Shown: in pieces, positions 398 through 15,139 of the stretch | Numbering within the stretch: the stretch's first letter is position 1 | Layout of the letters: the number at the start of each line of letters is the position of its first letter | Assembly: GCA_963749915.1 (NCBI GenBank) | Contig: CAVVOP010000023.1 | Span: 1-18,189 of the forward strand | Source: an uncultured cyanobacterium | GTDB lineage: Bacteria > Cyanobacteriota > Cyanobacteriia > Cyanobacteriales > Cyanobacteriaceae | Length of the DNA: 18,189 nt | Direction: 5' to 3' | The notes under the pieces: generated by a model | Told to the model about the DNA's origin: nothing | The model's input: only the letters and a program-made list of their open reading frames with translations | Databases searched by the model: none | Program-made: the position numbers and the translations under genes

Positions 398-1458
398 ATG
401 AAACGTTATGGCAATTTATATTCTCAAATAGTGGATTTTGATAATTTATATTTATCGGCTAAAAAAGCCCAAAAAAGTAAACGATTTAGACCAAATGTTC
501 TAGCTTTTAATTATAACTTAGAAACGGAATTACTTACTCTGCAACAAGAATTAATCAATAAAACTTACCCAGCCCGGTGAATATCGCACCTTTCGTCTTC
601 GAGATCTGAAAACTCGCTTAATCTCAGCAGCACCCTATCGAGATAGAGTGGTTCATCATGCTTTATGCAATATTATTGTACCGATTTTTGAGAGGACATT
701 TATTAGTGATACTTATGCTAATCGGGTTGGTTTTGGCACTCATAAAGCCCTCAAAAAATTTACTCAATTTGCTCGTTATCATCGTTATGTTTTACAATGC
801 GATATTAGAAAATATTTTCCCACTATTGACCATGAAATTCTCAAAGAAATCATCCGTCGTAAAATTAAATGTCCAGATACACTTTGGTTAATTGATACAA
901 TTATTGATAATAGTAATGAGCAAGAACAGATTATTCAATATTTTGCAGGAGATGATTTATTAACACCAATAATGAGAAGAAAAGGTTTACCAATTGGTAA
1001 TCTAAGCTCGCAAATTTTTGCCAACGTCCTCCTCAGTAATTTTGACCATTTTATCAAAGAAAAATTAAAAGCTAGAAAGTATGTGCGTTATGTTGATGAC
1101 TTTGGCGTTGTTTAGTAATGACTATCAATTTTTAAGAGAAGCCCGAATAGGAATAGAAGAATATTTAAGTAAATTAAGATTAAAAATTCATCCGATCAAA
1201 AGTCAATTATTTGAAACTAAAATAGGGGCAACTTTTCTGGGATTTAGAGTATTTCCCCACAGAATTAGAGTGAGAAATATGAATCTTCATCGAGGCAGAA
1301 AAAGAATAAAAAGATTGCAAAAAGACTATGCAGAAGCTAAAATTAACTTAAAAGATATTAAACAATCATTACAAAGTTGGGTTGCCCATTTAGAATATGG
1401 TGACACCTACCAACTAAGAAAACAGATATTCAGTGACCTTGTCTTTACAAGGGATTGA
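398..1458 (+). pseudogene. DGR-type reverse transcriptase split by two +1 frameshifts (352 aa when corrected)
   Basis: Removing one C at 568-570 gives [35 protein letters not shown]. Removing one G at 1104-1105 gives YVDDFALFSND. Motifs: [22 protein letters not shown] (the SQ form typical of DGR RTs), YVDD and FLGF. A TR/VR pair lies next to it. Confidence 0.93.
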
Positions 1459-3402: not shown

Positions 3403-5179
3403 ATGCTTAACGTGAGTTCGACGGAGCTAAAAATTCAGAAAATTATGAGTTTTTCTAACTTGTTTAATACCTGAATTCCTGATTCTCTCGTTGAAAAAAA
3501 TTGTCCTGAGCGGGCAAAGGATCTAACTCCGCTCGGTACGACTGCGAAGCAGCACCCCGAACTCCTAACTCCGAACTCACGTTGCTTAATCCTTATTTGA
3601 CTTTAGTTTTAATTAGTTTTTTTTTCTTCCAGGGAATAACTATCTCCTAGCTCAAGATTATTTTTTCGTTCCAGAAAATACTCCGGTTCGGGCAGAAACT
3701 AATAGTTTTATCTTAAAAGAAGTAATCGTTGAAAATAGTACTGTTTTTACTGAAAAAGATTTTTTACCTCTGATTAAACCTTACTTAAATCAAAGAGTAA
3801 ATCTAACAGATTTAGAGAATTTAAAAAGAGAATTAACCAATTTATATCGGCAAAAAGACTATTTTAATTCCTTTATTATCTTACCGCCGCAAACCTTTTC
3901 TGACGGAAAAGTAACCTATCAAGCCAGAGAAGGAGAACTGGTTAGTTTAAAGATCAAAGGCTTAATTCATTTAAAACCAAGTTACATTCAAGCCAGAATT
4001 AAAAACGCCCTTAGTACTCCTGTTTCCCGTCAAAAGATAGAGTCAGCCTTGATCCTACTGCAACAAGATCCTTTAATTGAAACAATCTCCGCCAATTTCA
4101 ACCAAAGAGGTAATCGAAACCAAGCCGAAATCACTTTAACTATTCAAGAAGCACCGCGATTTCAGGTGGCAGTTAGAAGTGATAATGAAGAAAATCCGAT
4201 GATCGGGAGCTGGGGTTTTTCTGTTCTCGGTTCTGCCCAGAATCTAAGTGGATGGGGAGAGCGGTTGAATTATCAGTACAAAATTACCACTGAAACCGGC
4301 TTATCCCAAGTAGATGCTTTCTATTTTTTTCCCCTGACTGCCCATGACCAATTAAACTTAGAATTTAGAGATAACGATACCACCATCTTAGCCGAACCTT
4401 TTGCCGATTTGGATTTAGTTAACCGCAGTAGCACCCTCGGCATTGGCTACCAGAGATCGCTGCTGAAAACCATCAACAATAGTTTCGCTTTAGGCTTAAA
4501 ACTCGATTTAGTCGAAACCGAAGCCTTTATTTTTAACGATACCCCCTTTCCCCGCTTCGACGGCAAAAATCGACTCAACTTAACCGTCTTACGCTTCAGT
4601 CAAATATATACCAGTAATTCGACCGATTCCTTTTTCGCCCTTAGTTCCCAATTTAACTTTGGTCTTAACGCCTTCGCCGCTTCTCGGGCGAGTGAATTTA
4701 TTGATCCTGATTTTTTTTCCTGGCAAGGAATAGCCCAATATGCCCAAAAATTAACCGATGATTTAATTTTCTCGGTTCAAATTCAAGGTCAATTAACCCC
4801 TAACTCCTTACCGATTACCGAACAATTTGCCATTGGTGGCATCAATACCGTCAGAGGTTATCGTCGTAATATTCGTATAGGCGACAAGGGCTTGATTTTT
4901 TCTGCGGAATTAAGGCAAAAGATTTGGCAAGATCTTGATTGGGGCATAGTGCAAGGTTATTGCTTCTTCGATACCGGAGTAATCGGTAATAATAAATTAC
5001 CTCAAATATACCCCAACACCTTAGCTAGTATTGGCTTAGGCTTAAACTGGGAAATCCAATCAACTGCCCTTCTGGGAATCAATTATGGCTTAAAATTAGT
5101 CAATGATCCTAGTTTTGGCTCAGGAACCTTACAAGACGACGGCATTAACTTATTTTTTCAATTACAAACCAAATTTTGA
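3403..5179 (+). CDS. TpsB (ShlB/FhaC/HecB family) outer-membrane transporter, 5' end disrupted by the MITE and a T9 frameshift
   Basis: The frame of the 4049 ORF is open from 3617 and encodes a POTRA domain (FILKEVIVENSTVF...LTNLYRQKDYFNS..LPPQ). It has EQFAIGGINTVRGY (VRGY motif) and a terminal Phe. The signal peptide MLNPYLTLVLISFF lies in another frame upstream of the T9 run at 3617-3625. Confidence 0.85.
3409..3583. mobile_element. 175-bp MITE with 12-bp terminal inverted repeats and a 4-bp target duplication
   Basis: TIRs AACGTGAGTTCG (3409-3420) and CGAACTCACGTT (3572-3583). GCTT is duplicated at 3405-3408 and 3584-3587. A partial second copy is at 6002. Confidence 0.85.
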
Positions 5180-5228
5180 GCTTTTTTTCTAGCTGCAAGT
5201 GTTTTATTTTTGAGTTTTGACTTTTGCT

Positions 5229-5996
5229 CTATCTCGCTTTATGGGCTGAGATAAAAACAAAACGATCTCTGAATTCTAAATTTGATTGTTCCTGATATTT
5301 TTGCTTCATTTGTGTTAATCCTTGCTGTAGCTGTTGCTCATCAAATCTTGAAAGTAAGGACATATATCGATTTTCGACCATCTCAAAATAGTTTTCTTTC
5401 GAGATAGAGACAGGATAATCAACAAAATTGACTGTAGTTTGAAAGCCAATTTTTTGTAATAAATTTACGAGATCATTATAATGCGGTTGCACAGCTTCAT
5501 AGAGACGCAAAGCTTCTCTAAATAAAGGATATTCAATGCGAGGAGGAAGCAAAATTAACAATAAGATTCCTCCAGAATTTAATCGTTCTAATAATCCTTG
5601 TAACAACTTTTCTTGATCCTTAATATGATGAATCATTTCTTTGATTAAAATTTTGTCGTATTGTCCTGATTCATCAGCAAATTCCACCGCATCTTTAATT
5701 AGTGGTTGATATTGATTACTCCGAGGAATTTTAGCCAACATTTTGTCAGACGGATCAACACAAATGATCGGATTATCTAACGGTAATTGAGAGATAATTG
5801 CTTTACTGTAAATTCCTGTACCACAACCGAGGTCCACTAAAATATCCTCCGAAACTAATTTTAAAGATTCAATGATCTTTTGGGTTAAAAAATTGATAAA
5901 TTCTGGAGATGAGCCCCAAAATTGATCATATTTCTGAGCCAAAGTTTGATAATGATTTTGGATTGAATATTTCACTAGACTTTCACAGTTTTTCAA
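5229..5996 (-). CDS. Class I SAM-dependent methyltransferase
   Basis: Motif I VDLGCGTG, VDPSDKML, and a MIHH motif. The true start may be the GTG at 5975. Confidence 0.88.
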   Translation of the reverse strand: MKNCESLVKYSIQNHYQTLAQKYDQFWGSSPEFINFLTQKIIESLKLVSEDILVDLGCGTGIYSKAIISQLPLDNPIICVDPSDKMLAKIPRSNQYQPLIKDAVEFADESGQYDKILIKEMIHHIKDQEKLLQGLLERLNSGGILLLILLPPRIEYPLFREALRLYEAVQPHYNDLVNLLQKIGFQTTVNFVDYPVSISKENYFEMVENRYMSLLSRFDEQQLQQGLTQMKQKYQEQSNLEFRDRFVFISAHKAR

Positions 5997-6001
5997 GTTT
6001 T

Positions 6002-6071
6002 AACGTGAGTTCGACGGAGCTAAAAATTCAGAAAATTATGACTTTTTCTAACTTTTTTAACACCTGAATTC
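6002..6071. mobile_element. Truncated copy (left end only) of the 3409-3583 MITE
   Basis: 6000-6071 matches 3407-3478 at 69 of 72 positions. There is no right TIR. Confidence 0.85.
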
Positions 6072-6092
6072 TAAATTCGCGCATTCTAAATT

Positions 6093-8561
6093 TTACCTAC
6101 ATTCTTCTACCGTTTCTTCTGATGCCAGCAAATGGACAGTACCATCATCCATAACCACCATTCTGGTGGCATCAACCATGGGGTTACTGGCAGTTTTTTT
6201 AGCAATAGCAGCGATTTCTGGATCGGAAAAAGGAATAAACGAATAACTCACCTGTCCCGTTAACGATCGCCCTCCGAGTCCGCGCTGGAGGATTTGAATC
6301 GCTGATTCTGATTGACCATCAAAGCAACCTTGAGTAATTAATTGTTCTTCGGCAAATTGAGTAGGCTTAGAGGTTAAATCATTGATTTCGTAGATGTCCC
6401 CATTAATCTGTACTTGTCCATCAATACCTAACTCCGAAGAAGCAGAAATAATTGATTCTGAACCCATTAAAACATTGCCATTAATCTCGATATTGCCTCC
6501 ATTTCCTTGAAAAGCATTAGCGGTAATCTGACTATTTTCCCAAACCAGTAATAAATCACTATGGAGGTTAATATTGCCCCCATCACCTTGATTTTCAGCA
6601 CTGGCGGTAATTTTACTCCCATTTTGTAGCAACAGAGAGTCACCTTGTAGGCTGATATTTCCGCCCCTGCCAGAAAAAGTCTCCGCCGAAATGCTCCCTT
6701 GATCTAAAACTGTTTTTTCCGCTAAAAGGTTGATATTGCCGCCATTGCCGCTTCCTTCATTGGTAACATTAATTAAGCCACCATGGGCGATCGTTAAATC
6801 TTCGGTGTTGATCTCAATGGAACCAGCATTGCCCGAAGGAATTTCTGGGAGATTGAATAGCTCGGTCAGAAAAGAAATTGACTTGTTGGCAGAAGAAGAA
6901 ATCTGACTGGGGGTACCAGATAAATTTTGCCCAGTAATTTCAATGGAGCTGGCATTAATAATCATATTACTGGCATTGCCGGTGGCGTTGGTATTGGTGT
7001 TTATCGATCCCCCTGAAGCCAATTTTAGTTTGTTGGTAGAGATAACGACTTCGCCGGTATTTCCCGAAAATAAAGTCAAGCTTCCTATGGCACTAGAAAT
7101 GAACTCATTTCCTTGTAAATCCGCGGCAACTGAGCCGGAAACTTCTACCTCGTCAGCAACCGTAATTTCTAGATTGCCACTGTCTCCCGTTCCTAAACTT
7201 TGGGATATGAGCAAGCCACCATTTTCCACTGAAAGTCTCTTGCCTAAAATCAAGATATCTCCCGCTCTGCCTGTGCCTGCTCCTAAAGAAAGAATTGAGG
7301 TAGGCAAGAACAAGTTTATTTGCTCGCTTCCTTCTATTTGGAGATTTTCGGCAATATTCAAGAGCAGAGAGCCTCCCTCTCCTCTGGCGAAACTGAGTGC
7401 CGAGATGGTGCTAAAATCTTGTACCGATAAATTTTTAGCAGAGATAATAATATCCGCACCCTTGCCCTCCGAGAGAGTTTGAGTATAAATACCTCGAATT
7501 ATATTGTTATTATTTAGTCCCTGAAGCGAAAATTGGTTAAAATCGGTAATTCCTCTTAAATTCACCTCCTCAGTGGCTTTAATCTTGAGGGAACCATGAG
7601 GAGCATTGCCAAAATTAGTAATCATCACAACGGCACCATCTTCAATTGACACATTCTTTGCCCGTAGGTTAATTTGACCATTGGAGATCCCACTGGCATC
7701 TAAAAGAGCTTGTTGATGGAGGCTAATATCTTGGAATTGAGATATTCTCTCATAATTCAAAGTGAATCCGTCCTTATTTTCCGAAAATTGAACAATTCCC
7801 CTCTCCACACTTGCCAACTCAATTTGTCCGGAAAATGCGGTTAAAATTCCATTATCAATGATAATTTCGCCGCCAATCAATCCTAAAGTTTTCCCCGGAT
7901 TAGTTCTCAAACCAGTCTGACTCTCTCCACTGCCCAAAAATGGACCGTTAAAAGATCTGTTATCGATGGAAAACCCGTTGCCAAACTTTAACTGATGACC
8001 AGTTCCCTGGACAATAATTTGTCCAGGGTTATTTCCAAACCCTAATCCCATGGGACTATTAGCGGTCAGTAAGGGCTTTCGCTCAGTACTAGCCGTAGCA
8101 AATTCAAATCCATCGGCGAAAATAATCCGATTGGCCGTGCTACCAAAGAAAGAACCTCCAACCGCTAGAGTTGCACCAGAACCAAAAATAATACCATTGG
8201 GATTGAGAAAAAATAAGTTAGCTGTACCGTTAGCTGCCAGAACTCCGCCAATGTGAGAGAGAGAATTTCCTGTGACGAGGCTAAAAATATTCTCAACGTT
8301 TAAAGCATTGTTGAACAAGGCAACTTGCCCGCTGAGAACCGAAAAAGCCTCAAAAGTATGAAAAAGATTACTGCCACTAGCTGTGCCGCCATTGATAATG
8401 AGTTTATTTCCTTCAGTAATTACGGCTGAATTAACTGGTAAGGAATTATCTGGTCTTATTTGTGCTGTTGATGGAGTAACAGTTAATACTAAAGGAATAA
8501 ATTGAATCAGTACTTGGAAAAGAGTATAAGTTTCTAATCTTACTAATTTCTTAATGTTCAT
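6093..8561 (-). CDS. TpsA filamentous hemagglutinin-family exoprotein
   Basis: Signal peptide ending STA-Q, a TPS domain (NLFHTFEAFSV, NLFFLNPNGIIFG), and repeated GxGGNI beta-helix motifs. The ATG at 8561 avoids overlap with the upstream gene. Confidence 0.92.
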   Translation of the reverse strand: MNIKKLVRLETYTLFQVLIQFIPLVLTVTPSTAQIRPDNSLPVNSAVITEGNKLIINGGTASGSNLFHTFEAFSVLSGQVALFNNALNVENIFSLVTGNSLSHIGGVLAANGTANLFFLNPNGIIFGSGATLAVGGSFFGSTANRIIFADGFEFATASTERKPLLTANSPMGLGFGNNPGQIIVQGTGHQLKFGNGFSIDNRSFNGPFLGSGESQTGLRTNPGKTLGLIGGEIIIDNGILTAFSGQIELASVERGIVQFSENKDGFTLNYERISQFQDISLHQQALLDASGISNGQINLRAKNVSIEDGAVVMITNFGNAPHGSLKIKATEEVNLRGITDFNQFSLQGLNNNNIIRGIYTQTLSEGKGADIIISAKNLSVQDFSTISALSFARGEGGSLLLNIAENLQIEGSEQINLFLPTSILSLGAGTGRAGDILILGKRLSVENGGLLISQSLGTGDSGNLEITVADEVEVSGSVAADLQGNEFISSAIGSLTLFSGNTGEVVISTNKLKLASGGSINTNTNATGNASNMIINASSIEITGQNLSGTPSQISSSANKSISFLTELFNLPEIPSGNAGSIEINTEDLTIAHGGLINVTNEGSGNGGNINLLAEKTVLDQGSISAETFSGRGGNISLQGDSLLLQNGSKITASAENQGDGGNINLHSDLLLVWENSQITANAFQGNGGNIEINGNVLMGSESIISASSELGIDGQVQINGDIYEINDLTSKPTQFAEEQLITQGCFDGQSESAIQILQRGLGGRSLTGQVSYSFIPFSDPEIAAIAKKTASNPMVDATRMVVMDDGTVHLLASEETVEECR

Positions 8562-8596
8562 GGAGTGGGGAATTAACTGCCCTTCGGGCGAGGATG

Positions 8597-10054
8597 TCAA
8601 TGAGAGAGAAATATTTCCGAAGTCCAAGTTCCATGAAATCCGTGTGGAACATGATGTGACAGATAAAGTTTGGCAACCACTTGGGTAATATCTTCTGCGT
8701 TTAAAATGACAAGATAGCTGCGATGAAAAGAAGCATTATATACCATTGAAATAATCCAGCCGTCATCTTCTCCAGTTCCTCCAGGACGAGGAACAAATAC
8801 CGGTTCTCCGGCAAATCCTCGAGGGGCTGGACTCCAGATTTGTCTTTCTCCTGACTTTTTGTCAAGTTTCATAATCGCCTGGATCGGTCCGTTGGTCGAG
8901 GGGGAATGAGTTACGCTCATGTATAGGTAACGATGCTCTTTTCCTACCCATTGAGGGTGTACTGAAGGAAAATCGCATCCTCGAGTTTCTATCTTTTCAC
9001 GAACTACTGTTTTGGAACTTAATGAAAGGGTAAATTGCCATAAATTTCCAGTGGGGAAATCGGAGAAGTTAACTTCTTCAAGGTTCAGTTCTTCTTTTTC
9101 TTTTTTTGGGAACGAATTAGCACAAATTGACTCTAGGTAGATATTTCCGTCTTTTTCCCAAGCATTGCCATGATGAAATCCGAAAAAGGATTCTGTTTCT
9201 AAAATCTCCATCTTTCCGAATTCATGACGGGAGATAATGATTATTTTCGTAGGTTCTTTGGAATCAAAGTTAAAGCATTGCTCTATGCTTTTGAAACCTA
9301 GAAGAAAAGGTAATCCGTTTACCTTAAAAGGATGCTGGATAAAAATATAATAATTAGGTGTTACCAACATATCGTGCAAAAAAGCAAAGCCAGTTAGGGG
9401 ATAGGAATGTTCTTTGAGCTTGTTTCCTTGACTATCTAATTCCAAAATGGTTAATTGTGGTGAAGTAATTCCCCTGACACCAAAATTAATGAAAGTATTA
9501 TCGATAATTCGAGGATGAGCCGAAAAAGGTTGATTAGTTTCTAGTAAACCATTGAGGTTATCTTGACCAATGGTTTCCAATGTTTGTGGCTCTAGCTGAT
9601 GGGGTTGTCCACCTTCCCACAGTGCCCACAGTTTGCCGCCCCAATAAATAACATTGGTATTAGCTGCGTTTTTAAAATTGGTATCGAAAATATTTGCTAA
9701 CCATCCTCCTGGTTTCTGAGTGCCAAAACCTCGATAAAGAATCTTTCCTGCTTCTTGCTCTTTTAAATAACCTTCAGTCTGAACATAACGATTTTGAAAA
9801 TGGGCACGTCCTTGTGCAAAAGTAATGGCACAAATCATTCCATCACCATCGAACGGGTGTCCTATTTTTTGTCCATTGATCGACAATAATCCCGGACCAT
9901 TACGAAAAAGAGTTCCCTGTAAATCATGGGGAATCATCCCCTCAATTTCATCGAGCCAATAGTTATATTCATTAGGCTGTGATTCATAACCCTTCGCCCA
10001 ATCTTTTACTTGATAACTTGGTTCTATTGCATTTTCGATTAATAAATTTGACAT
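8597..10054 (-). CDS. Carotenoid/apocarotenoid cleavage oxygenase (RPE65 family)
   Basis: GTLFRNGPG, HPFDGDG, FSAHP, FLHD, FHH, GEPVFVPRP and HVPHGFHG; the four iron-ligand His motifs are present. Confidence 0.93.
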   Translation of the reverse strand: MSNLLIENAIEPSYQVKDWAKGYESQPNEYNYWLDEIEGMIPHDLQGTLFRNGPGLLSINGQKIGHPFDGDGMICAITFAQGRAHFQNRYVQTEGYLKEQEAGKILYRGFGTQKPGGWLANIFDTNFKNAANTNVIYWGGKLWALWEGGQPHQLEPQTLETIGQDNLNGLLETNQPFSAHPRIIDNTFINFGVRGITSPQLTILELDSQGNKLKEHSYPLTGFAFLHDMLVTPNYYIFIQHPFKVNGLPFLLGFKSIEQCFNFDSKEPTKIIIISRHEFGKMEILETESFFGFHHGNAWEKDGNIYLESICANSFPKKEKEELNLEEVNFSDFPTGNLWQFTLSLSSKTVVREKIETRGCDFPSVHPQWVGKEHRYLYMSVTHSPSTNGPIQAIMKLDKKSGERQIWSPAPRGFAGEPVFVPRPGGTGEDDGWIISMVYNASFHRSYLVILNAEDITQVVAKLYLSHHVPHGFHGTWTSEIFLSH

Positions 10055-13038: not shown

Positions 13039-14034
13039 CTAAACCATATCAGCCAGGATATTAACCGCTTCTTTCTGCAAAGCGACTCTATTATCATCGT
13101 AGCGAGTCAAAACATCTAAATTCTTATGCCTCGATAACTTTTGAGCCATGCGTACATTACCATTTGAAGCATCGAGTACCGCAGTAATCGAACTATGCCT
13201 TACTCGGTGAGGAGATAAAATTTTGTCGCTTAATACCTCATCAGCATATTTTCTGACAATGCAGTAAATACTTTTTCCTGTTAATCTATTGCCTCTAGTA
13301 TTGTGGGCTAGACTAATAAACAGGGGTGATTCAGGTTGAGGATTAGAGTAACAAGATAGCCAATTATTTAAAGCTGATACCGTCTTCGGTGCTAAATGAA
13401 TGACCTGTTTACCGATTTTACCCTTACCCTTAATTCTCAAGGTAGAATCAGCTTGATCATAATCAGCGATGGATAGATTACTTATCTCAGAACGTCTTAA
13501 AGCATTATCCCAAAGTAACCGCATAACGGCATAATCTCTTTTACCAGATAAAGTATCGGTGTCAATACCAGATAAAATCTGACTAAAACTATCCTTACTT
13601 ACCCCAGAAGTATCTCGATAAACCTCATTCCCTAGACTCTTTAAATCTTCAATTAACCAATTACAAAAACCTCTTTTAAAAGCAAATTTTACTAAACTAC
13701 GAATAGAAGCAATGCGGATGTTAATACTATTGGGAGTATAATCAGCCTCAATTAAATCTAATTGATATTGAGCAGTGTAAGCGATGGCCCTCACCTTTTC
13801 AAAACCTAAAAACTCACCGATAACCGCTTTGATTTGGATGTCAGGTAAAACTATCTTCTGACATTTATTTAAGAACCCATGAATCAGATAATGAGCAAAA
13901 TACTTGAGATTTTGACGATAAGTTTGACGGGTAGAAGCCTTATGCTTAGAAGCAATTAAAGCCTCAATAATACAATCGAGCGACTGATTCAAAGGCTGAA
14001 TCAAGCCACCATTGGCAGTAGCTAACTGTGTCAT
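13039..14034 (-). CDS. Tyrosine recombinase, XerC-like plasmid resolvase/integrase
   Basis: RDYA..LLWDNALRRSEI (catalytic R), KGKG (K), SPHRVRHS (HxxR), SRHKN (H) and TRYDD (Y). Confidence 0.93.
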   Translation of the reverse strand: MTQLATANGGLIQPLNQSLDCIIEALIASKHKASTRQTYRQNLKYFAHYLIHGFLNKCQKIVLPDIQIKAVIGEFLGFEKVRAIAYTAQYQLDLIEADYTPNSINIRIASIRSLVKFAFKRGFCNWLIEDLKSLGNEVYRDTSGVSKDSFSQILSGIDTDTLSGKRDYAVMRLLWDNALRRSEISNLSIADYDQADSTLRIKGKGKIGKQVIHLAPKTVSALNNWLSCYSNPQPESPLFISLAHNTRGNRLTGKSIYCIVRKYADEVLSDKILSPHRVRHSSITAVLDASNGNVRMAQKLSRHKNLDVLTRYDDNRVALQKEAVNILADMV

Positions 14035-14247
14035 AATATTAATTAATCAGATTAAAATCGATAGCTACCAAGCCCTTGGTAGTTATTTTACTATCAGGGG
14101 TTAGCTGATATACAAAATGATCGACTTTTTATATAAATAACTGTAGGGAAAAAGAGTCTTGCTGTCAAAGGGTACGAAAACCCGCATTAGCATACCCTAA
14201 AATTATTGTATGTATCACATATACTTGGGATCTTAAAGTTTAACGAC

Positions 14248-14281
14248 AAAAAAAAGAAGGCAGGGGCAAACAACCCCCACC
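14248..14281 (-). terminator. Putative intrinsic terminator of the adenine-free ORF
   Basis: Minus strand GGTGGGGGT-TGTTT-GCCCCTGCC (9-bp stem with three G-U pairs) followed by TTCTTTTTTTT, 7 nt after the TAG. Confidence 0.6.
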
Positions 14282-14288
14282 AGAGCCA

Positions 14289-14573
14289 CTAGGGAAGAGC
14301 AGCCCAAGCACCCCACCCACGAACGGGCGAGGACGCAGGAACAACAACGGGAACAGACACAACCCAGCACCCCGAAACAGCAGGACAACAACGAACCGCC
14401 ACCGCCGAGAAACCGCAAACACCAGCCCACCGCCGAGCAAAACCCGAAGCCAAAGCCAACGAACCAAACCGAGCCACCAGACGGAAGCCACCACCAGAAC
14501 GCCCCGGACGCAACCACCAAGAGCAACAGCCACAAGCCAACGCCGAACCAGAAACAACACGGAAAGAAACCAC
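14289..14573 (-). CDS. Adenine-free small ORF, 94 aa, function unknown
   Basis: GTG start at 14573, 9 nt after GGGGG. All 94 sense codons lack A, and the only A in 360 nt is in the TAG stop. A terminator-like hairpin follows. Confidence 0.65.
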   Translation of the reverse strand: MVSFRVVSGSALACGCCSWWLRPGRSGGGFRLVARFGSLALASGFARRWAGVCGFSAVAVRCCPAVSGCWVVSVPVVVPASSPVRGWGAWAALP

Positions 14574-14929
14574 GGGAACAAACCCCCAACGAAAGAACAG
14601 CTTCTTTTCACCCGTTCTCATTTTTCACAGTGAACTTTGATCTGTGCGCAAGGCAAAAATAAATAAATGGAGCGTAGCCGTTACGAAGACTATAACTAAC
14701 TAGAACTAAACTATGGCGGCGGAGCGACTTCAATTAAGGTGTTGCCTAGTCGCACCACAGAACGGGTATACTAGAAAAGCGGTCGTGTCATTGTCTCACC
14801 AGTTCCAGCCACGCAGTGACCTAGGGTCGGAAACAGTAGCCTTTGAGATAAACCGAAGGCAAAAAGACTATGTTTTTAACTGTATTTCAAGCTAGATATT
14901 AATATATATTAAGAAAAGTATCTAGGTAA

Positions 14930-15139
14930 TGGTTTTTCAGTTATAATGAATGGCTTACCCTTGAAGAGAAACAGAAACTACAATGGACAGCGTATTCAGA
15001 GCCTTCTGTTAACAAGTCAGCTCTCACAACTGCTTTTGAAGGAGTAGGTAGGTATATGCAGGAGATGGTTATCCCAGACGTAAGACGTATTCTGAGGAAA
15101 CAAGATCTTGAATCCAATTCCGCCCTGCCAGATGCCTAA
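14930..15139 (+). pseudogene. 3' remnant of an upstream cassette ORF
   Basis: Open frame WFFSYNEWLTLEEKQK...DLESNSALPDA*. Its TAA lies inside the GCCTAAC inverse core of the attC site, as is typical of gene cassettes. Confidence 0.5.

Follow-up and report, generated by a model that had tools for sequence, protein, structure and literature searches.

Why would a complete gene, its untranslated regions included, be written almost without one of the four bases? The question is raised by a 360-bp element in the window analysed here, which is the whole of contig C23 (18,189 bp) of the 4.69-Mb genome G000 (37.5% G+C) of an uncultured cyanobacterium. Between positions 14242 and 14601 the + strand contains 148 A, 134 C, 77 G and one T; this sole T lies at 14290, the bordering T's at 14241 and 14602, and the resulting T-free runs measure 311 nt and 48 nt, the runner-up in the window being 34 nt. 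At a T frequency of 0.297 a run of 311 nt has a probability of ~10^-47.6 per start position, with ~9.4 million positions in the genome. An initial annotation, made from the letters alone, had drawn attention to the single T in 360 bp, and base counts and a genome-wide run scan confirm it. The T-free stretch serves as template for a small but complete transcription unit of the - strand (14242..14601), consisting of a 5' untranslated region (UTR), an open reading frame (ORF), a 3' UTR and a terminator, and referred to below as the A-free unit; its limits match the base of a leader hairpin at one end and the end of the terminator tail at the other.

The existence of an ORF proves nothing in such DNA, since stop codons are impossible without A and six open frames are therefore trivial; homology is what identifies the gene. 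The 94-codon gene proposed at the outset (14289..14573, - strand, from GTG at 14573-14571 to TAG at 14291-14289) has stood up well: its homologs start at the same place, the TAG-closed frame retrieves nine homologous proteins at 49-92% identity in a word search, and the length of 94 codons is kept in the copies on contigs C23, C8, C13 and C7 and in metagenome locus L012, with a ratio of nonsynonymous to synonymous differences (pN/pS) of 0.28-0.72, that is, below 1. An in-frame stop codon is present in every copy, and the frame is conserved among homologs, members of normal composition included, a point on which the initial annotation had asked for evidence. The product belongs to a family that we call family X. 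A GGGGG Shine-Dalgarno-like motif (14583..14587, CCCCC on the + strand) stands 9 nt 5' of the GTG on the - strand, and the succession of GGGGG, 8-9 nt and ATG or GTG can also be read by eye in loci L021, L023, L025, L026 and L034. Beyond the stop codon, a terminator scan finds an intrinsic-terminator-like hairpin (14281-14259) with a T8 tail (together 14248..14281, - strand), an arrangement repeated 3' of the stop in genome G003, L012, L021-L036 and Nostoc. An upstream in-frame ATG (14619..14621, - strand) would extend the product to 110 aa and is probably not the start codon: the 16 additional N-terminal residues are unconserved among homologs, residues 1-13 of the longer reading are predicted to be disordered, a 1-nt indel in the C13 copy shifts this ATG out of frame, and the C7 copy has a different 5' end. 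Stop codons of A-free units are TAG in 12 of 15 cases, TAA in two and TGA in one (TGA, like TAG, contains one A), compared with genome-wide usage of 63% TAA, 21% TAG and 15% TGA.

Scanning the whole genome for runs of more than 130 nt that lack any single base returned four loci only, all of them homologous copies of the A-free element (C23 14291-14601, C13 15521-15840, C8 877342-877652 and C7 9342-9667). These full copies are mutually 83-95% identical and have remained T-free despite 5-17% divergence; the differences among them are numerous and often patchy, and one alone, in C7, brings in a T. Near-identical sequence occurs in sediment, lake and other metagenome runs, where contigs assembled from three RNA runs and a DNA run show 27 differences from the window. 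On the + strand 26 of these exchange A, C or G for one another, and a single one, at 14396 (depth 3.9), changes to T. Partial copies are found at C8:374124-374527 and C9:43056-43175, and a copy of the leader only at C8:887795-888034 (locus L008). The latter sits directly 3' of the reverse transcriptase of a diversity-generating retroelement (DGR) with a degenerate-looking template-repeat region, and is truncated by an insertion with inverted repeats at its flanks.

The target of selection is the nucleic acid and not the protein, because synonymous sites, both UTRs and some start codons all avoid A. Measured against codon usage in 1,015 long ORFs of the genome, codons that have an A-free synonymous alternative are A-free in 82 of 83 cases where 54 would be expected (~1e-16), and in the sister species G003 in all 148 of 148. 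About 48% of the residues of ordinary G000 proteins require an A-containing codon; in the body of the family-X gene none does. A is likewise missing from the 5' UTR (14601-14574), from the 3' UTR and from the terminator; some members dispense with it even in their start codon. The copies on C23 and in L012 are separated by ~43 synonymous differences and both are still almost A-free, and the state as a whole has been retained across ~50% synonymous divergence and 12 genera. The choice codons, the UTRs and the terminator thus bear out the core idea of the initial annotation, namely that A is kept from the transcript, or T from its template, unless it is obligatory; most relatives are almost A-free as well.

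The exclusion is independent of context. A-poor zones of 14 loci, 6.5 kb in all, have an A content of 1.5%; apart from this deficit, dinucleotides show observed-to-expected ratios of 0.94-1.06, the lowest trinucleotide ratio is 0.55 (CGC), and strong depletion of any further di- or trinucleotide is absent. Of the 103 A's left in 7.5 kb from 16 loci, 61 precede a G, mostly in TAG (21), CAG (20) and GAG (17), and this predominance of A before G reflects third-position A avoidance once more. Neither protein function nor mutation bias readily explains an exclusion so total and context-free, which therefore points to a strong selective agent acting on nucleic acid. Avoidance of ultraviolet lesions was considered as a cause and judged unlikely, since CC dinucleotides on the T-free template strand are undepleted (53/359, approximately as expected from C content).

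Family X consists of uncharacterised alpha/beta proteins of ~80-110 aa from cyanobacterial mobile DNA, with a conserved core of ~80 residues and the motifs FRxVxGSAL, RSFSG and VSVPV. The family profile matches 115 proteins at E <= 0.001 and the window ORF at E 2.4e-27. In 77 of the 115 profile matches at least 90% of residues fall within the alphabet F, L, S, C, W, P, R, V, A and G; the existence of a minority of ordinary composition (for example P0043, P0064, P0069 and P0103) means that the family match is not mere shared bias. A six-frame search through a phylum-wide sample of 401 cyanobacterial genomes located the family in 17, which represent 12 of the 155 genera and all belong to the order of the window. 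Of 19 matches outside G000, 12 contain <=4% A over the part matched, two contain 7-11% and five contain 23-36%, so that the composition of the relatives is bimodal, either nearly A-free or normal; the A-poor zones span from ~260 nt to 896 nt. An AlphaFold2 model of the family-X protein shows an alpha/beta fold (predicted local distance difference test score, pLDDT, 81.6), for which Foldseek returned nothing at E <= 0.001 and a wide structural search a generic two-layer alpha/beta match only (best Z 6.0). The family has no sequence match in Pfam, PHROGs or PDB, its clusters are all named 'hypothetical protein', and the ESM Atlas yielded nothing usable for it. No match was obtained in PLSDB with the DNA of the A-free unit, among plasmids by tblastn with the window protein, or in the viral contigs searched for family X, and a protein-pattern scan of genome contigs gave two spurious matches only, in the unrelated metagenome-assembled genomes L013 and L014. 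One protein of 4,561 aa (P0010) matches the profile in 38 separate stretches (E 2.7e-94), and may be a giant repeat protein or A-free DNA read through.

A second protein family shares this mode of writing. In G003 the leader described below precedes a 185-aa partner protein alone, A-free save for three internal A's, whose 120 homologs (in Microcoleus, Leptolyngbya, Anabaena and others) are all named 'hypothetical protein' and which draws at least 90% of its residues from the A-free alphabet in 113 of 119 sequences. Its predicted structure (pLDDT 88.6) identifies the partner as a protein of the DprA/SLOG (Rossmann-like) fold: the best structural matches are DprA (3uqz, Z 9.2, with a root-mean-square deviation of 3.1 over 121 aligned residues; 4ljk, Z 9.0; 3maj, Z 8.9), and the top ten are all SLOG folds, including ShosA (Z 8.1) and the SLOG domain of ThsA (Z 8.1). 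At the sequence level the Pfam DprA family (PF02481) was unmatched, and six partner proteins hit no Pfam family at E up to 5. Family X and the DprA-like protein are fused in L031, L033, L040 and P0027; the long zones of the first three are single ORFs of ~270-300 codons that end in sequence of the second-protein type. In L037 (genome G348) a family-X relative of normal composition lies directly 3' of the terminator of an A-free DprA-like gene, and the order in Nostoc is the reverse. G000 itself has no DprA-like gene detectable by tblastn.

The Nostoc locus is on plasmid pNOS7524.01 (Nostoc sp. PCC 7524, NC_019677.1, L020), which carries on one strand a family-X gene, the DprA-like gene, several small genes, ArdA and ERF. 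Its family-X gene contains 10% A, compared with ~30% in neighbours; the A's that it retains are confined to GAG, GAC and CAG codons, which specify acidic and Gln residues that are conserved. The A-free DprA-like gene (L020 6838-7377) is unannotated, the record having an overlapping gene on the opposite strand (NOS7524_RS30500). In the window the unit is followed downstream on the same strand by a tyrosine recombinase gene (13039..14034, -; Pfam Phage_integrase, E 1.1e-17); integrase genes or fragments adjoin the C8, C13 and C7 copies too, and ParA/ParG, SSB, Sipho_Gp157 and Avd-like genes also lie near the G000 copies. The initial annotation had suggested looking for DprA-like genes or an origin of transfer (oriT) in the vicinity of homologs, and the first part of this suggestion succeeded, with A-free DprA-like genes adjacent or fused in other genera; as to the second, no oriT was found near the G000 copies.

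Immediately 5' of the unit lies a conserved leader of ~250 nt (14602..14880), which is shared by the paralogs on C8 and C13, by G001 and G003 (72% identity) and by metagenome loci L011 and L012, and partly by G217. RNAalifold predicts a closing helix P1 (14604-14618 with 14759-14779) and an inner helix P2 (14644-14654 with 14744-14755). In P1 and P2, 91.9% of cells are paired, as opposed to 83.9% in shuffles and 29-50% with slid partners, and eight pairs have changed on both sides, a number reached by 0 of 500 shuffles; these pairing and covariation figures are inflated, because the seven sequences scored are also those that gave rise to the structure. In the DNA fold a -10-type hexamer, TATACT, occupies the bulge between the halves of P1 (14767..14772, on the T-free + strand). 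Equivalent hexamers elsewhere read TATAAT, CATAAT, CATACT, TACAAT, TATCAT, TAGACT, GATAAT, CACAAT and CATCCT, and their A2 and T6 are invariant in 14 of 14 leaders, eight of which were aligned and the others read by eye; positions 2 and 6 are the best conserved of the sigma-70 -10 element. The start predicted from -10 spacing falls at 14598-14604, and the T-free boundary at 14601/14602; in C23, Nostoc, L021, L023 and L034-L036 the A-poor zone starts at the hairpin base. The helices could form in either DNA strand or in RNA. Rfam gave no match at gathering score for the window and none at E up to 5 for 14150-15000, no tRNA was found in the window, and a degenerate leader motif had no match in a collection of genome contigs.

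A hairpin within DNA that carries a promoter has precedent: Frpo/ssi single-strand promoters are located in the leading regions of conjugative plasmids (F, ColIb-P9), where they drive ssb, psiB and ardA on the incoming strand; the Frpo architecture is described in excerpts of PMC11541004 and of bioRxiv 10.64898/2026.01.09.698686. Our preferred account, to which we lend slightly less than even credence, is that the A-free unit is an establishment gene of integrative or plasmid elements, expressed in the entry phase, kept A-free by selection on its message or template, and served by an Frpo-like hairpin promoter at the leader. The leader would fold as single-stranded DNA of the T-free strand, with P2 and P1 providing the duplex and the -10-type hexamer exposed in the bulge; the arm bearing the hexamer would act as the non-template strand, while the other arm would run on into the T-free template and so lead RNA polymerase into the gene. 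Transcription would start at 14598-14604, at the T-free boundary, and would yield a message without A from a template without T, rendering first expression insensitive to a host activity on single A's in RNA or single T's in exposed template. We favour such a single-strand promoter for the C23 copy with moderate confidence. The selective agent, we infer, acts as mobile DNA enters or establishes itself. Whether the case can be extended is more doubtful: we regard as possible, if rather less than probable, the wider proposal that invading cyanobacterial DNA, possibly including that of aquatic phages, keeps its first-expressed unit in a three-letter alphabet, T-free in the template and A-free in the message. 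If this were true, there would be a widespread host activity on single A's in RNA or on single T's in exposed template DNA, and a new class of establishment proteins (family X and the A-free DprA/SLOG proteins) expressed from a cyanobacterial single-strand promoter.

Several observations weigh against this account. Compared with shuffles, the leader is not more stable (z -1.2 as DNA and 0.0 as RNA), and in energies for the whole leader neither strand is consistently the more stable. Wobble pairs are few (columns 110/329 and 126/315), and it is on the sense strand that they read G-U, which favours an RNA leader. The leaders have, by eye, no conserved -35 element, the best in C23 being TTGCCT with a 19-nt spacer. 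Ordinary sense-strand promoters stand 5' of the A-free units in L031 and L033 and of the Nostoc DprA-like gene, and the existence of A-free units with TTGACA/TATAAT promoters means that the trait can do without a hairpin promoter. (The spacers of L031, TTGACA-N18-TATAAT, and L033, TTGTAT-N17-TATAAT, hold perfect palindromes resembling operator sites for tight repression, and the Nostoc spacer is palindromic too.) In G001 (L002 1172-1790) the leader is joined, a few bases past P1, to an A-rich gene of normal composition, whose protein is a family-X member by hhalign (96.6%); the locus amounts to a natural 'recoded' counterpart of the A-free gene. As to conjugative entry, no relaxase, oriT or type IV secretion gene lies near the four G000 copies, PLSDB types the Nostoc plasmid as non-mobilizable, and ArdA and ERF on that plasmid are not A-poor. 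In three metatranscriptome libraries the A-free region is represented by contigs (one of 383 nt extends over 14249-14603), and these run data are assembled contigs, which carry no information on strand, ends or expression level and come from RNA libraries that can contain DNA. In the same libraries a segment further upstream, 14832-14951, is far deeper, with a mean word depth of 413-705 in X12 and up to 796 in X13 compared with 3.9 and 25.9, respectively, for the A-free region, and depth is even in the DNA run. This segment holds a CTAGATA...TATCTAG inverted repeat followed by a T run on the + strand, is also seen with other left flanks, and might correspond to a small RNA or else to a promoter module that is repeated.

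The wobbles, the canonical sense-strand promoters of other A-free units and the RNA-library contigs over the A-free region would all suit a rival account, which we consider unlikely and nevertheless take seriously, in which the leader is an ordinary structured 5' UTR transcribed from a double-stranded start near 14890-14950. P1 and P2 would then regulate translation, and only the coding part and the 3' end would be A-free, as protection from A-dependent endoribonucleases induced by the host against invaders (MazF/ToxN-type enzymes that cut at motifs, RelE/HigB-type codon cutters, HEPN nucleases). In its favour, at two terminal pairs of P1 the wobbles take the G-U form on the sense strand in 10 of 14 cells, and P1a in L011/L012 and Nostoc requires U-G pairs on the sense strand (by eye). 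Yet the leader is itself A-rich and so would be cut; motif-specific RNases select against motifs, and the total exclusion of A, UTRs included, with its bimodal distribution, exceeds an avoidance of ACA; the RNA fold equals shuffles (z 0.0); and the hexamer on the opposite strand, with its invariant A2 and T6 and promoter-like geometry, would become a coincidence. Total context-free exclusion and bimodality together argue for an agent acting on single A or T residues, not on longer motifs. As to its nature, A-dependent RNases and an activity directed at T on the single strand as it enters (modification of the DarT type, or binding by proteins that prefer T in single-stranded DNA) are alike unlikely when each is taken alone, transcription in an ATP-poor cell has only a slight chance, and something else makes up the remainder. 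The idea of a T-free single strand gains some plausibility from the hairpin leader with its -10-type hexamer on the T-free strand and from the presence of DarT domains in 48 of 401 cyanobacterial genomes sampled; DarT is found in 4 of 17 family-X genomes, a co-occurrence that is uninformative beside the overall frequency, and its absence from G000 itself counts against the preferred account. Host defences that degrade or deaminate ATP exist, and a unit transcribable with GTP, CTP and UTP alone might be expressed under the ATP scarcity that they, or darkness, bring about. This version would account for a context-free exclusion over the whole unit from its predicted start (G in C23, Nostoc and L034-L036, by eye), for the tolerance of one to a few A's and for the lack of avoidance of any other base or motif; it is improbable all the same, as tRNA charging in translation still consumes ATP and some units have A-rich 5' UTRs (L033, for example).

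Two further explanations dispense with an agent of this kind. The initial annotation had raised the possibility that the A-free state is the end product of directed mutation, such as repeated DGR-like, adenine-specific rewriting by reverse transcriptase from the unit's own transcript. A is missing from the sense strand, as this predicts, and G000 has DGR reverse transcriptase and Avd-like genes, with one DGR reverse transcriptase in the window (648-1458) and others near C8 copies. Classical DGRs need a separate invariant template; no adenine-bearing template copy exists in the genome, all full copies being T-free, and the template repeat (TR, 1481-1616) of the window DGR matches solely its own variable repeat (VR, 2790-2922), unrelated to the unit. 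The limits of the zone fall at the proposed promoter and the terminator rather than at DGR landmarks, the copies diverge among C, G and T under purifying selection, and the confinement of A to GAG, GAC and CAG codons of conserved residues in the Nostoc homolog is a signature of selection, all of which leaves directed mutation very improbable. The window DGR itself (648-2922) has its reverse transcriptase split into two overlapping ORFs (648-1115 and 1081-1458) and its VR at the C-terminal end of a target of FGE-sulfatase type (1991-2920); C1, C8, C21 and C22 carry related DGR parts. The other explanation takes the stretch as a non-coding cis element (an origin, an R-loop former or a recombination site by the integrase) in which the ORF is incidental. 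Six open frames, a G-rich sense strand, integrase neighbours and the differing start frames of C13 and C7 speak for it, and it is scarcely tenable, since one frame encodes a protein family with members of normal composition, pN/pS is below 1, the fold is predicted with confidence and every copy has its in-frame stop; homology may be said to have largely refuted it. Elsewhere in the window there is a two-partner secretion pair (4049-8627), formed by a ShlB/FhaC-type transporter (4049-5179) and an 844-aa exoprotein with a two-partner secretion domain (6093-8627, -), and HIP1-type GCGATCGC sites, like the relatives found, characterise the G000 genome as cyanobacterial.

We found no described natural gene that excludes one base from its whole transcription unit across genera. 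A search of full-text literature gave no description of adenine-free or thymine-free prokaryotic genes, the matches listed being eukaryotic, medical and in-vitro-tool papers, and the papers on plasmid leading regions and conjugation found in this way do not use the term 'DprA-like'. The excerpts of PMC11541004 and PMC13478746 considered here make no mention of base exclusion in Frpo-driven genes, and on the composition of leading regions those of the latter deal with GC content and GC skew only. The identity of the selective agent could reveal a new principle of defence or counter-defence, and the A-free composition provides a simple signature by which genes expressed first could be recognised in uncultured mobile elements. 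The finding also brings to light a pair of uncharacterised protein families, family X and the A-free DprA/SLOG proteins, and possibly the first single-strand promoter outside classical plasmid models.

Among known systems, Frpo/ssi promoters resemble the unit in several respects: a conserved hairpin, predicted in the case of the unit, spans a few hundred nt directly 5' of a gene of the establishment type, the folded strand bears a -10-type element and is so oriented as to be the template, and a family-X relative on the Nostoc plasmid adjoins ArdA; the unit differs from them in a leader without a conserved -35, in the lack of an oriT or relaxase among the genes found, and in its cyanobacterial host. 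With DGRs it shares an adenine-specific process and the presence of a DGR in the same window, but the A-free gene has no TR/VR pair, all of its copies are A-less and its limits are transcriptional. The partner has the fold of DprA (Z 9.2-8.9) and of other SLOG proteins including ShosA of the ShosTA defence system (Z 8.1); unlike DprA, it is a protein of ~170-190 aa without the DprA flanking domains and written without A, and the window contains the family-X gene only. Messages that lack ACA survive MazF, and the A-free message may likewise stay intact by lacking the recognition letters of a nuclease, with the difference that ACA-less mRNAs avoid one trinucleotide, whereas the natural genes described here, from many genera, dispense with A altogether, in their UTRs as well. 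A likeness in composition is offered by the G-less cassette, an engineered, non-coding tool for in-vitro transcription, which also runs for a few hundred bases without one nucleotide on the transcript strand; the A-free unit, by contrast, is natural, coding and evolutionarily maintained.

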